Sequence record: NC_028822.1
From: Escherichia phage P483
Direction: 5' to 3' (one strand)
DNA length: 40,829 bases
A program made the position numbers and the translations under genes. Positions 28,434 to 37,412 of the stretch are shown one piece after another. The notes below the pieces were generated by a model. That model had not been told where the DNA came from and made no database searches. It was given only the letters and a program-made list of their open reading frames with translations. The first letter of the stretch is position 1. Every line of letters begins with the position of its first letter.

Positions 28434-28456
28434 TCCTCCATAGGTGAGTCGTATTA
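28434..28456 (-). promoter_or_regulatory. Phage RNAP promoter phi1.6
   Basis: Minus strand reads TAATACGACTCACCTATGGAGGA. Confidence 0.75.
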
Positions 28457-28534
28457 ACAATCAGGCCAGCAGTTGTCATCAATGATAACGAGAGCAAAGG
28501 TGGCAACAATGATAGCAACAATTAGAAATAGCAT
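28454..28534 (-). CDS. Small hydrophobic peptide (T7 gene 1.5 position)
   Basis: 26 codons, MLFLIVAIIVATFALVIIDDNCWPDC; its SD GGAGGA is the 5' end of the phi1.5 transcript. Confidence 0.45.
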   Translation of the reverse strand: MLFLIVAIIVATFALVIIDDNCWPDC

Positions 28535-28541
28535 GAGGTTG

Positions 28542-28564
28542 TTCCTCCATAGTGAGTCGTATAG
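28542..28564 (-). promoter_or_regulatory. Phage RNAP promoter phi1.5
   Basis: Minus strand reads CTATACGACTCACTATGGAGGAA. Confidence 0.75.
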
Positions 28565-31375: not shown

Positions 31376-34027
31376 TCAGGCAAAAGCGAAGTCTGACTTG
31401 AGGATTTCTTGGAGGTCGAGAGCACCTTTAGCTGGCATCTCAGGCATCTTGTCAAGCTGTGACTCGTGCAACTGCTCGGCAAATTGCTCATAGAAGTCTG
31501 CGAGTACATCGTTTTCTTCGTAAGTGTTGACCATCGTTTCACGCACTGCTTTAAACAGGTTGCCAGCATCAGCAGGGATAGTACCAAATGAGTCGTGAAT
31601 AAGTGCAAAGGATTCCACACCGTATACCTCATTGGAGCGCACTACAGTCATTCGCAGGTGGCTACCGTCCATTGAGTGAACAAAGTTAGGTGCGATGCCT
31701 GACTCCTGCTTACGTGCGTCAATTCCGCTATCCTTGTTGGTGTTCACGGTAGGCTGCAAACGAATCTGCCCCAAGAACATCAGGTTCAAACGAGTCTGTA
31801 CTGGCTTCTTGTATTCCTGCCAGACCGGGAAGCCATCAGGAGTTACCCAATGTACCGCGCAGCGCTTGCGGAGAACCTCTTTAGTCTTCTTGTCCTTGAC
31901 TTCAGCAGCTAGGAGTTTAGCCGCAGACTTCAGCCAGTTCATTGCTTCAACCGCAGCGACCACAGTCACTGTTACCGATTCCCAAATCAGTTTAGCCATA
32001 TAGCCAGCCGCTTGGTTCGGTTGAGTGAACATCAAGCCTTTACCATCGTCGATAGCTGGCTGAATGGTGTCCTCTAGCACTTGGTCACGGAAGCCGTACT
32101 CCTTGGACCCGTAAGCCAACGTCATGACCGAACGCTTAGTGACCTTGCGAGTCACACCGTAGGCCAGCCACTGACCAGCTAACTCTTTCGTTCCCAGCTT
32201 GAGCTTCTCAGTGATTTCACCAGTGTCCTTGTTTGTCACTGTTTCCACTTCGTTATCAGTGCCGTTGATTACCGCTTCGCGGAGCATCTCGTTCACACGT
32301 TCGGCAACGATGCGGTAGATGTCCTGTACTTCCTTGCTTGGCAGCAGGTTAACAGCGCGTCCACCTACTTCATCACGAAGCATTGCAGAGAAGTGTTGAA
32401 TACCAGAGCAAGAGCCATCGAACGCCAGCGGCAGAGAGCAGTTGTAGTTCATACCGTGGTGTTGCACACCTGCATACTCAAAGCAGAATGCGAGGAAGCA
32501 GAACGGAGAGTCTTGTTCAGCCCACCAAGTGTTAGCAATAGGGTCAGCCGCAACGCTCATGATGTTCTCGTGGTTGTCCTCAATGAACTTGATGCGTTCT
32601 GCAAAGTCCACCTTGTCCACACCAGCAGTGTTTGCACCGTGAATCTTCAGCCAGTAGTATCCATCAACACCGATTGGTTTACCTTTAGCGAGCGTTAACA
32701 GACCCTTGGTCATGTCGTTGCCTTGCGGGTTAAACATCGGTACAGCGTAGACACGACCGCGCCAGTCCATGTTCATAGGGAACCAGATAGCTTTAAACTG
32801 TGCGAACTTGTTGGCTTGCCCTAACATGAACTCCATGCTCATACGACGAGACACGCGAGCCTTCTCCTTGCGGTAGATTGCGGAGGCCGCTTTCTTCCAT
32901 GCTTTGAGTGCCGCTTCGTTCGTGTCGATGTCTTCAGGTTTAACCGGAAGTTCACCACGTTCGAGAGCAGGTACATCTTCAACCGGGCAATGCTTCCAGT
33001 TCACAATCTCGTTGACCACTGCCAGAACCTTCTTGTTAATCTTCCAAGGAGTATTCTGTGCGATGTTAACCGCCTTGTAAACTTCAGGCATATGCACGTC
33101 GTTGTAACGCTCAAGTCCCTTCTTGGAACCAGTGCGAACCAGAGAGAGAGGCTTGCGACCAGCAGCCCAATAGCCACCACCAACCGGAGAAGTCCAAGGC
33201 TTCGGAGGGACCACACAAGGTTGATACATTGGAGCGATTGCAGCCAGTGCACCAGCACGTTTAGATAACAGGTCAACGTATTGTTCGGTTAACTGGATGT
33301 ACTCACCATCCTTCTCAACGTTACCAGCAAACGGTCGGTGTAACTCAACGAGACCAGTAGACCCAATGAGCAGTTCCAACATACGTACACCAACGTGGAT
33401 TGCTTCTTCAGGTGTCCATGTGGTCCACTTGGTTTGCAGTTGACCAGCATCTAACATCTTGCCTTCTACTGCTTGCATGAATGCCTTCTTGTAGACGATA
33501 CCTACGCGCTTGTTTAGTGCTTCCTGTACGTGATTCTTAAAGTGCTTCGCTTCTTCGTCACGAATGCGACCGAAACGCAGTTCATCTTCAATGCTGCGAC
33601 CAATCTTAGTTGCGACCGCTTGCAGGTTGGTGTATTCCTCTTTGGTTAAACAAGCCAGTGTGACCTTCAGTGTGATGAAAGCAGCCGCTTCAGGTGCAAC
33701 CTTCTGTACCAGATTATAGGCCACTGGACGCTTACCGCGCTTAGATTCCACTTCAGTGAACCAAGTGTTCCACGCCTCGATAAACTTCGGTGCGAGGGAT
33801 GACAGGAGAGGTTTAGCCACTGCGTTGTCACCGAACTCACCCGCTTTGATTTGACGCTCCATTGCCTTAAGGAAACGCTTCTCGCCCTCAGTGTGCGCTT
33901 CGTGTTCTAACTCAAGCTGAGTAGCAGCAAGCTGTGCGCCGTAATGGTCAGCCAGAATGTTGTACGGCTGGATTGCGTTAGCGATGTCAGAGAAGTCATT
34001 CTTTGGTGCATTGATTACGTTAGTCAT
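31376..34027 (-). CDS. 1: DNA-directed RNA polymerase, single subunit (T7 gp1-like)
   Basis: 883 aa, identical in length to T7 RNAP; long stretches match as recalled, including the specificity-loop region RKRCAVHWVTPDGFPVWQEYKKP and QPTVNTNKDSGIDARKQESGIAPNFVHS. Confidence 0.97.
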   Translation of the reverse strand: MTNVINAPKNDFSDIANAIQPYNILADHYGAQLAATQLELEHEAHTEGEKRFLKAMERQIKAGEFGDNAVAKPLLSSLAPKFIEAWNTWFTEVESKRGKRPVAYNLVQKVAPEAAAFITLKVTLACLTKEEYTNLQAVATKIGRSIEDELRFGRIRDEEAKHFKNHVQEALNKRVGIVYKKAFMQAVEGKMLDAGQLQTKWTTWTPEEAIHVGVRMLELLIGSTGLVELHRPFAGNVEKDGEYIQLTEQYVDLLSKRAGALAAIAPMYQPCVVPPKPWTSPVGGGYWAAGRKPLSLVRTGSKKGLERYNDVHMPEVYKAVNIAQNTPWKINKKVLAVVNEIVNWKHCPVEDVPALERGELPVKPEDIDTNEAALKAWKKAASAIYRKEKARVSRRMSMEFMLGQANKFAQFKAIWFPMNMDWRGRVYAVPMFNPQGNDMTKGLLTLAKGKPIGVDGYYWLKIHGANTAGVDKVDFAERIKFIEDNHENIMSVAADPIANTWWAEQDSPFCFLAFCFEYAGVQHHGMNYNCSLPLAFDGSCSGIQHFSAMLRDEVGGRAVNLLPSKEVQDIYRIVAERVNEMLREAVINGTDNEVETVTNKDTGEITEKLKLGTKELAGQWLAYGVTRKVTKRSVMTLAYGSKEYGFRDQVLEDTIQPAIDDGKGLMFTQPNQAAGYMAKLIWESVTVTVVAAVEAMNWLKSAAKLLAAEVKDKKTKEVLRKRCAVHWVTPDGFPVWQEYKKPVQTRLNLMFLGQIRLQPTVNTNKDSGIDARKQESGIAPNFVHSMDGSHLRMTVVRSNEVYGVESFALIHDSFGTIPADAGNLFKAVRETMVNTYEENDVLADFYEQFAEQLHESQLDKMPEMPAKGALDLQEILKSDFAFA

Positions 34028-36840: not shown

Positions 36841-36869
36841 ATAGTCTCATAAGCCATTATCAATGTCAA
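36841..36869 (-). promoter_or_regulatory. Sigma70-type early promoter (A1-like)
   Basis: Minus strand -35 TTGACA (36864-36869), 17-bp spacer, -10 GACTAT (36841-36846). Confidence 0.6.
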
Positions 36870-36961
36870 CACTCAATCTTAAAGAATCTTAAAGCCTCTC
36901 TTTAAGTTGTCTTATAGTCTCTTATAGTGGACATAAAGAGAGAATGACCATTATTAGTGTT

Positions 36962-36979
36962 TCTCTCTCTCTCTCTCTC
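36962..36979 (-). repeat. (TC)9 / (GA)9 dinucleotide microsatellite at the phiOL transcription start
   Basis: tctctctctctctctctc read directly; the transcript would begin GAGAGAGAGAGAGAGAGA. Confidence 0.9.
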
Positions 36980-36996
36980 AATAGTGAGTCATATTA
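36974..36996 (-). promoter_or_regulatory. Phage RNAP promoter phiOL
   Basis: Minus strand reads TAATATGACTCACTATTGAGAGA. Confidence 0.75.
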
Positions 36997-37135
36997 AAGG
37001 CTATTGACTCTAAGCCATCTTTAAGGCACTATAAACACTCAGTCGATTCTACTTGTCTCTCTCATTACTCAGAGACTGCTAAACAGAGTAAGATAGTGAT
37101 TCCCCTTTGTGACGAAGCCTATTGTCACTGATAAA

Positions 37136-37210: not shown

Positions 37211-37412
37211 AGATACTCAATGGTCACTTACAGATAGGGACACAGAGACACTAAGTTATCCACAGAGTTACCAACAGTCTCACCTAAAGTTATCCACACA
37301 GCCTCTAACCTAGAGTTATCCACAGAGTTATCCATAGGTTATCCACAAGTTATCCACAAGTTATCTACAGGGTTACCCACAGGGGGGAAACCACTATGTA
37401 TGAACTATGAGA
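37190..37412 (-). repeat. Predicted terminal direct repeat with the left physical genome end at about 37412 (boundaries approximate)
   Basis: Minus strand from 37412 reads TCTCATAGTTCATACATAGTGG...CCCCCC, like the T3/T7 left end (TCTCA...) as recalled; GTGTCTCTGTGTCCCTATCTGT (37225-37250) matches the end of the T7 terminal repeat. Confidence 0.4.
37246..37381 (+). repeat. Array of eight DnaA-box-like 9-mers (five exact TTATCCACA) in the predicted terminal-repeat region
   Basis: TTATCCACA at 37246, 37290, 37316, 37339, 37350; TTATCCATA at 37328; TTATCTACA at 37361; TTACCCACA at 37373; all same orientation. Confidence 0.8.

Follow-up and report, generated by a model that had tools for sequence, protein, structure and literature searches.

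A perfect (GA)9 repeat at the phiOL start site of a Berlinvirus genome, probably a microsatellite seeded by the promoter's own start sequence

The left-most phage promoter of the window (i.e., the whole 40,829-bp stretch of DNA that was analysed) runs directly into a perfect (GA)9 repeat. We consider this repeat to be probably a slippage-grown, length-polymorphic microsatellite, seeded by the purine-rich start of the promoter itself, phiOL. The feature is modestly interesting and recurrent, is not a new kind of element and is already present in published genomes (phiA1122). A preliminary description of the window had raised several consequences for the repeat, including transcript slippage, altered promoter clearance, triplex formation and length variation between isolates, and its interpretation is partly supported. 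To it we add a conserved GAGA seed, an expansion in a second genus and a complementary pyrimidine arm 15 nt downstream.

When both strands are read, the plus strand has (TC)9 at 36962-36979 and directly after it AATAGTGAGTCATATTA at 36980-36996, while the minus strand has TAATATGACTCACTATT followed by GAGAGAGAGAGAGAGAGA-AACAC, continuing AACACTAATAATGGTCATTCTCTCTTTATG after the tract. The span 36962-36996 is thus exactly the repeat plus a 17-bp promoter, as first described, and the earlier reading of a perfect (GA)9 from +1 on the transcribed strand holds. Tandem Repeats Finder gives a period of 2, 9.0 copies and 100% matches at 36962-36979. Together with two A's (36960-36961), the tract makes the window's longest homopurine run, of 20 nt; +1 to +18 alternate between G and A, and the first homopolymer is the AAA at +18 to +20. 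The features concerned are:

36962..36979, minus strand: (GA)9 microsatellite, +1 to +18 of the phiOL transcript; (TC)9 on the plus strand
36980..36996, minus strand: phiOL-type phage RNA polymerase promoter TAATATGACTCACTATT, positions -17 to -1
31376..34027, minus strand: gene for a single-subunit T7-type RNA polymerase (883-aa ORF; Pfam PF00940, E 2.7e-111, and PF14700, E 7.7e-22)

The phiOL promoter is one of 14 minus-strand phage promoter sites resembling the genome consensus TAATACGACTCACTATT, which it matches at 16 of 17 positions, the sole mismatch being a T at -12. A 16-mer promoter pattern allowing up to three mismatches has 14 matches in the window, 13 of which lie on the minus strand; shuffled sequences give an expectation of 0.29. 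By a leave-one-out weight matrix covering -17 to +6, phiOL scores 32.1 bits, and the other 12 promoters score 20.3-39.4. To judge from its sequence the promoter is intact, and the polymerase encoded at 31376..34027 would use it. Transcription would begin at the first G of the tract, and phiOL transcripts are expected to open with an 18-nt GA run (20 purines). Ten of the other 13 promoters start with GGG, five of these with GGGAGA, in agreement with the earlier statement that GGGAGA is the usual start; one other promoter (18882) starts GAGAGG. The phiOL start, GAGAGA, differs from the consensus GGGAGA at +2 alone, so the repeat can be seen as an outgrowth of the promoter's own start sequence. 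Two other roles for the tract were considered and rejected: a coding role, because no ORF of at least 20 aa crosses it on either strand, and membership of a known RNA family, because the sole Rfam match at the tract, a nematode sRNA (E 0.3), is far under its gathering score.

The window is a Berlinvirus genome (T7-like, Studiervirinae), reverse-complemented and circularly permuted, with all of its long genes on the minus strand. Its best identity to Berlinvirus genomes is approximately 93% over 24 kb, and the phage collection has no identical record; its length, 40,829 bp, exceeds that of every related genome record retrieved (about 38.4-40.7 kb). Around phiOL, the layout is as follows:

37230..37412, minus strand: terminal-repeat region, from BLAST of the BA14, Kvp1, JSS1 and 315 left ends and from the BA14 annotation
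36870..36961, minus strand: A+T-rich spacer that separates the GA tract from the A1-like promoter, 31.5% G+C over 92 bp vs 48.4% in the window
36841..36869, minus strand: first sigma-70 promoter downstream of phiOL, the A1 equivalent (TTGACA, 17 nt, GACTAT)

This permuted assembly apparently has the terminal repeat in single copy. At 37412 is the genome's left end, TCTCATAG... (TCTCATAGTTCATAC...), with the first 35 bases of BA14 matching 37412-37377, and a concatemer-junction-like motif, CTATCTGT, lies at approximately 37237-37230, as located from the annotated concatemer junction of BA14. With the left end at 37412, the phiOL +1 (36979) falls at genome position ~434, comparable with T7 (phiOL at 405) and BA14 (phiOL feature at 353-375). 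The promoter at 36980-36996 is the left-most phage promoter, between the terminal repeat/concatemer junction and the first host promoter, and it is positionally homologous to phiOL as annotated in BA14 and T7. This homology, the left-most position, the consensus match and the weight-matrix score all confirm the name phiOL, which the preliminary description had already used. On the other side of the genome end, the phage promoter at 38004-37988 is the phiOR equivalent. In alignments, the A1-like promoter coincides with the feature annotated as 'host RNAP promoter' in BA14 (460-496) and Kvp1 (455-484); it scores under the threshold of a consensus promoter scan and was identified by reading and alignment.

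A repeat of nine units is far above chance. The second-longest dinucleotide run in the window has five units, and the longest run in each of 2000 first-order Markov simulations of the window had 4-7 units, reaching 7 in 6 of the 2000 and 8 or more in none. The expected count of 9-unit dinucleotide runs of any kind is 4e-5 per window. These figures uphold, for the window, the earlier remark that such repeats are rare in genomes of this type. The tract is therefore a perfect repeat of a 1-6-nt unit beyond chance, and it also has the other mark of a microsatellite, i.e., its length differs by whole units between aligned flanks.

This length variation emerges from the orthologous phiOL region, which was read in 23 Berlinvirus genomes. 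Most of the 23 starts are of the GAG type (GAGAAT, GAGGAT or GAGAGA), and five are GGG. The start is GAGAATGG in BA14, Kvp1, S523, P694 and DS_BP2, GAGGAT in WW1 and D226, and GAGAAAC in RN5i1; the GGG-type starts are GGGATAGG (BP12A, PhiV-1, ETEP21B and CarlSpitteler) and GGGAAGG (Berlin). One subclade has the window's downstream sequence (…AACAC…AATGGTCATTCTCTC…), and its start is GAGAGA-AA, i.e., (GA)3, in 285P, SEqdws-315 and Salmonella phage JSS1. Longer tracts occur in Shigella phage A7 (GAGAGAGAG-G-GAGA-AA, seven units, interrupted), Escherichia phage P151 (GAGAGAGAGAG-G-GAGA-AA, eight units, interrupted) and the window (nine pure units, then AA).

A six-way alignment of the window, P151, A7, 285P, SEqdws-315 and JSS1 has 89% mean column identity, and tract lengths in these genomes are 6, 6, 6, 14, 16 and 18 nt. 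Indels near the start site are confined to the tract (0, 2, 4, 12, 12 and 12 nt) and are all multiples of 2. The preliminary description had suggested that the repeat might vary in length between isolates and should be compared among them; at the level of related genomes it does vary, with 3, 3, 3, 7, 8 and 9 units in six Berlinvirus genomes and 89% conserved flanks.

The nearest orthologues, in P151 and A7, are identical to the window in promoter (including the -12 T), flanks, pyrimidine arm and position; their tracts are shorter and have one A-to-G interruption, whereas the window's is pure and is one and two units longer, respectively. The interruption (GGGAGA-AAC) is common to A7 and P151 and lies at a fixed distance from the 3' end. 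On its promoter side, the tract of P151 is longer than that of A7 by one unit, as would be expected if the pure part slipped stepwise. Because the -12 T variant is common to all three long-tract genomes (A7, P151 and the window), the simplest history suggested by these sequences is one expansion from (GA)3, followed by single-unit changes. An exact-pattern scan of IMG/VR for the promoter plus (GA)5.5 with -1 T gave no match, and a variable-gap scan (promoter, 2-32 nt, AATGGTCAT) of the same database gave only copies of A7 and 285P. The variable-gap pattern (AATGGTCAT) had no match in the genome collection and one chance match, unrelated on inspection, in the metagenome collection. By itself, (GA)9 occurs in at least 120 stretches of IMG/VR.

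The expansion is not confined to Berlinvirus. Scanning IMG/VR for CTCACTANN(GA)5 revealed two further T7-like genomes, phiA1122 (100% identity to AY247822), which has TAATACGACTCACTATA followed by (GA)14-TAGACAGAGAGAC, and EG1 (MG488277, Teseptimavirus), which has TAATTCGACTCACTATA followed by (GA)7-TAAGACC. The (GA)14 was read in the sequences of phiA1122 and YpP-Y, and for YpsP-G it follows from a gap-free 100% match to phiA1122. After its (GA)14, Yersinia phage YpP-Y has TAGATAGACAGAGAGAC vs TAGACAGAGAGAC in phiA1122, a 4-nt TAGA duplication that leaves the GA count the same; the two records are otherwise near-identical. Like the window, the Teseptimavirus genomes of Yersinia phage phiA1122 (AY247822 / NC_004777), YpsP-G and YpP-Y have a perfect GA repeat from +1 of the left-most promoter, likewise between the terminal repeat and the first host promoter. 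Unlike the window, phiA1122 belongs to another genus, has A rather than T at -1, has 14 rather than 9 units and is without a downstream pyrimidine arm or predicted 5' hairpin, and its flanks cannot be aligned to the window by megablast.

Other Teseptimavirus phiOL starts are short: AGGAGAGAC in T7, AGGAGAGAGAC in 13a, NC-A and 3A_8767, GAGAGAC in MeretOppenheim and GGGAGAGAC in avDM11. T7-group starts are thus AGGAGAGA, AGGAGAGAGA or GAGAGA, with AG(GA)4 in 13a. The T7 phiOL itself (405 in NC_001604) resembles the window's in being left-most and non-consensus; its start (AGGAGAGA) is likewise rich in purines and leads into an A+T-rich stretch and then the A1 promoter. It differs in starting with A, in having three GA units after AG and in deviating from consensus at -11 rather than -12. 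Taken together, these sequences indicate that a short GA run belongs to the phiOL start throughout the subfamily and that its lengthening occurred in at least two lineages and probably in three. A literature search on dinucleotide repeats in T7-like phages returned nothing useful, and the literature passages covered on phiOL, which do not extend to the phiA1122 genome paper (J Bacteriol 2003), make no mention of a GA repeat.

In the microsatellite reading that we favour, the seed would be the GAGA(GA) of the phiOL initially transcribed consensus, with (GA)3 already there before expansion, and stepwise strand slippage during DNA replication would have lengthened it to 7, 8 and 9 units. Replication slippage, which we infer as the mechanism, is the standard route to whole-unit length change in such tracts. 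The site is non-coding and lies ~90 bp before the first host promoter, where no reading frame, ribosome site or essential leader structure would limit length, so the tract would be free to grow. Spread to the left would be blocked, since -1 and the positions upstream are held by promoter recognition, and this would explain why the repeat looks fused to the start site. The tract would be near-neutral, and its effect on fitness is probably small. In the passages of PMC6171733 that treat T7 phiOL, the promoter is described as weakly used, which is consistent with relaxed constraint, and as one that could drive polymerase-mediated genome entry.

Some observations fit neutral slippage less well. 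Long tracts recur at exactly phiOL in two genera, and this recurrence could reflect selection or a site-specific mutational process. If the tract were neutral and highly unstable, three phiA1122-group records would not be expected to have an identical (GA)14; the identity is compatible with a recent common origin, or else with stability or selection. A second run, (GA)4 at 37063-37056, lies 80 nt upstream and differs by no more than one unit among the six aligned genomes. However, this run lies in a hairpin (37052-37075, minus strand, ~60-80 nt upstream of phiOL; GTCTCT-GAGTAATGAG-AGAGAC) that has a compensatory double change in JSS1 (GTCCCT...AGGGAC), and this constraint means that it cannot serve as a free control; the extra GA unit is in A7.

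Several other explanations were weighed against slippage-driven growth of the tract, the least probable being that the repeat arose in sequencing or assembly, which the preliminary description had named as its refutation. Dinucleotide runs do tend to stutter by one unit in PCR-based libraries, and there is no second copy of the exact genome for comparison (the best record has ~93% identity). Against this, relatives assembled independently have tracts of 7 and 8 units at this site, between conserved flanks, three phiA1122-group records have 14 units at the same promoter, and an 18-bp repeat is well inside read length. With independent assemblies showing 7, 8 and 14 units at the same promoter, a wholly artefactual tract, the proposed refutation, is very unlikely; the exact number of GA units in an assembly is nevertheless worth checking against reads. 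We also give little credence to the idea that the tract makes the phage polymerase slip at initiation in 2-nt steps and so gives phiOL RNAs variable non-templated 5' GA runs. T7-type polymerases do slip at start sites: an extra 5' G is found on 79% of T7 transcripts starting GGG (PMC7429497), and the related mitochondrial polymerase slips on T-tracts at its own promoters (PMC8934621). A GA-repeat RNA would, by its sequence, re-pair perfectly after a 2-nt shift. However, in the parts of the literature covered, reiterative transcription start sites are defined by a homopolymeric run (PMC8812562, PMC7039003, PMC8934621), and the reported cases found are homopolymeric tracts at the start site (PMC7429497, PMC8934621, PMC8812562, PMC7039003). 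Those cases (pyrBI, pyrG, T7 GGG starts and mitochondrial LSP/HSP) share with phiOL a repeat exactly at the transcription start site, but theirs are homopolymeric runs, whereas that of phiOL is a dinucleotide repeat. The start-site homopolymer of three or more bases that is the criterion for reiterative transcription is absent at phiOL, where no homopolymer precedes the AAA at +18 to +20, and a 2-nt shift requires all hybrid pairs to break simultaneously. A full-text literature search for dinucleotide-repeat slippage by T7 RNA polymerase found nothing relevant.

A structural role is similarly improbable, and it concerns one further feature:

36935..36944, minus strand: pyrimidine arm TTCTCTCTTT (UUCUCUCUUU), 15 nt downstream of the purine run

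This arm is complementary to the 3' part of the GA tract and could pair with it, as RNA or as single-stranded DNA, in a predicted 10-bp stem, so the tract could be the 5' arm of a phiOL RNA stem-loop with UUCUCUCUUU (36944..36935), in which expansion adds spare registers. Such a structure would resemble the 5' stem-loops that open many T7-type late transcripts, and obvious 5' hairpins occur at several other promoters in the window (e.g., GGGAGACCC..GGGTTTCCC). The arm is present in P151, A7, 285P, 315 and JSS1, and the stem is predicted in the window, P151, A7 and 285P, with MFEs of -11.9 to -15.7 kcal/mol. The first nucleotide of the (GA)3AA start is already paired in the 285P fold, and in that of A7 the G interrupting the tract is opposite a C, where other genomes have T (CATCCTCTC vs CATTCTCTC). 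The number of units in the arm also varies (CATCCTCTCTCTTT in JSS1 vs CATTCTCTCTTT in the window, P151 and 285P), i.e., both arms of this inverted GA/TC pair behave as short repeats. The folds are, however, close to those of shuffled sequences: the window's leader has an MFE of -15.7 kcal/mol with a z-score of -1.87 and 10 of 200 shuffles as good, and across these leaders z-scores are just -1.3 to -2.0, with 6-19 of 200 shuffles folding equally well. JSS1 and other Berlinvirus leaders have no significant fold, and a genus-wide 5' hairpin was rejected, as RNAalifold found 0 consensus pairs in 17 phiOL leaders. Furthermore, phiA1122 and EG1 have long tracts with neither the pyrimidine arm nor a fold (MFE -0.7 and -0.2), so a hairpin cannot account for the recurrent expansions.

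A functional start is a likelier alternative than these, though still an unlikely one: the expanded homopurine start might have been selected because it tunes phiOL, through promoter escape, an R-loop that throttles re-initiation or priming at a left-end origin. The first 20 nucleotides would use GTP and ATP alone, and a stable purine RNA/pyrimidine DNA hybrid could reduce abortive release and help escape; a persistent RNA:DNA hybrid (R-loop) could throttle re-initiation at high polymerase concentration, or the hybrid could prime DNA synthesis at a left-end secondary origin made up of the promoter and the A+T-rich stretch. In favour of such tuning, one and the same promoter has recurrent long tracts in two genera, and (GA)14 is unchanged across three phiA1122-group records. 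With its purines on the non-template strand and its start at +1, the tract has the orientation and promoter proximity of R-loop-forming G-rich inserts. In published experiments, G-rich homopurine inserts on the non-template strand near a T7 promoter cut yield ~13-fold via RNase H-sensitive R-loops, with blockage declining at lower G content and no significant effect from an A-rich insert (PMC5499740; PMC3561996). Those inserts (Belotserkovskii et al. 2013, 2017) are like the window's tract in having a purine-rich non-template strand adjoining a T7-type promoter, but they are G-rich, longer and 9 bp from the promoter, whereas the tract is 50% G, 18-20 nt long and begins at +1. By a rough nearest-neighbour estimate, the (GA)9 leader's hybrid-over-duplex advantage is -4.2 kcal/mol per 20 nt, which is in the top 3.5% of all 20-mers yet not outside what the phage's other 13 promoter leaders show (-0.8 to -6.1, with phiOR at -6.1). 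Moreover, two to four units suffice in most Berlinvirus and Teseptimavirus genomes, and long tracts are spread widely (7, 8, 9 and 14 units), with no common optimum.

T7 replication origins consist of a phage promoter and an A+T-rich region, and by its sequence layout phiOL is likewise a promoter followed by an A+T-rich stretch (31.5% G+C over the 92 bp 3' of the tract). This resemblance is a point for selection. In a broader reading, which we hold to be about as doubtful, the phiOL start would be a hotspot of repeated, independent GA expansion in Studiervirinae, with cases in the Berlinvirus subclade, the phiA1122 group and EG1; it would be either driven by initiation or selected for its leader, and so functional or mechanistically informative rather than neutral. 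Expansion driven by initiation would come from repeated melting and abortive cycling, or from DNA synthesis primed by RNA at the left-end origin. A selected leader, on the other hand, would owe its advantage in promoter escape or origin priming to being long, free of pyrimidines and hybrid-stabilising. A role that is selected or coupled to initiation is thus possible, at low probability. As for the triplex suggested in the preliminary description, (GA)9 is a homopurine-homopyrimidine mirror repeat in a 20-nt purine run, which is the pattern expected of H-DNA as a sequence property only, and the location of the site, ~430 bp from the free end of a linear genome, would argue against sustained supercoiling; a triplex would be expected under negative supercoiling or at low pH.

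Long non-coding stretches are few in a T7-like genome; on the likeliest reading, the tract is no more than an ordinary microsatellite within one of them, and its length could be a cheap marker for typing close isolates. The recurrence would be more interesting if it had a cause in initiation or origin priming, as alleles of 3, 7, 8, 9 and 14 units would form a ready series with which to test the effects of +1 repeats on escape, slippage and R-loops in single-subunit RNA polymerases.

Other short repeats and promoter-like sequences were seen in the window and its relatives. Within the spacer, 36875-36928 contains short direct repeats of the CTTAAAG/CTATAAG type (AATCTTAAAG twice and TCTTATAGTC twice), one of which, CCACTATAAGAGAC, looks like the 3' half of a phage promoter; ACTTAAAGAG motifs akin to them are also found 3' of phiOL in T7, BA14 and Kvp1. 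On the minus strand at 28440-28564, two phage promoters lie ~108 nt apart (28564 and 28456), and the one at 28456 has a one-base insertion relative to the consensus (GACTCACCTAT, then GGAGG). Inside the terminal-repeat region, at 37314-37383, an 11-nt unit (plus strand AGTTATCCACA, minus strand TGTGGATAACT) is repeated in tandem approximately six times, in an array which recalls the short repeated motifs of T7-group terminal repeats. Yersinia phage Berlin, the type species, has a long array of ~11-nt GACTACTTAGAG-type units at 408-540, directly upstream of phiOL and annotated as a repeat_region, a layout that differs from the window's.
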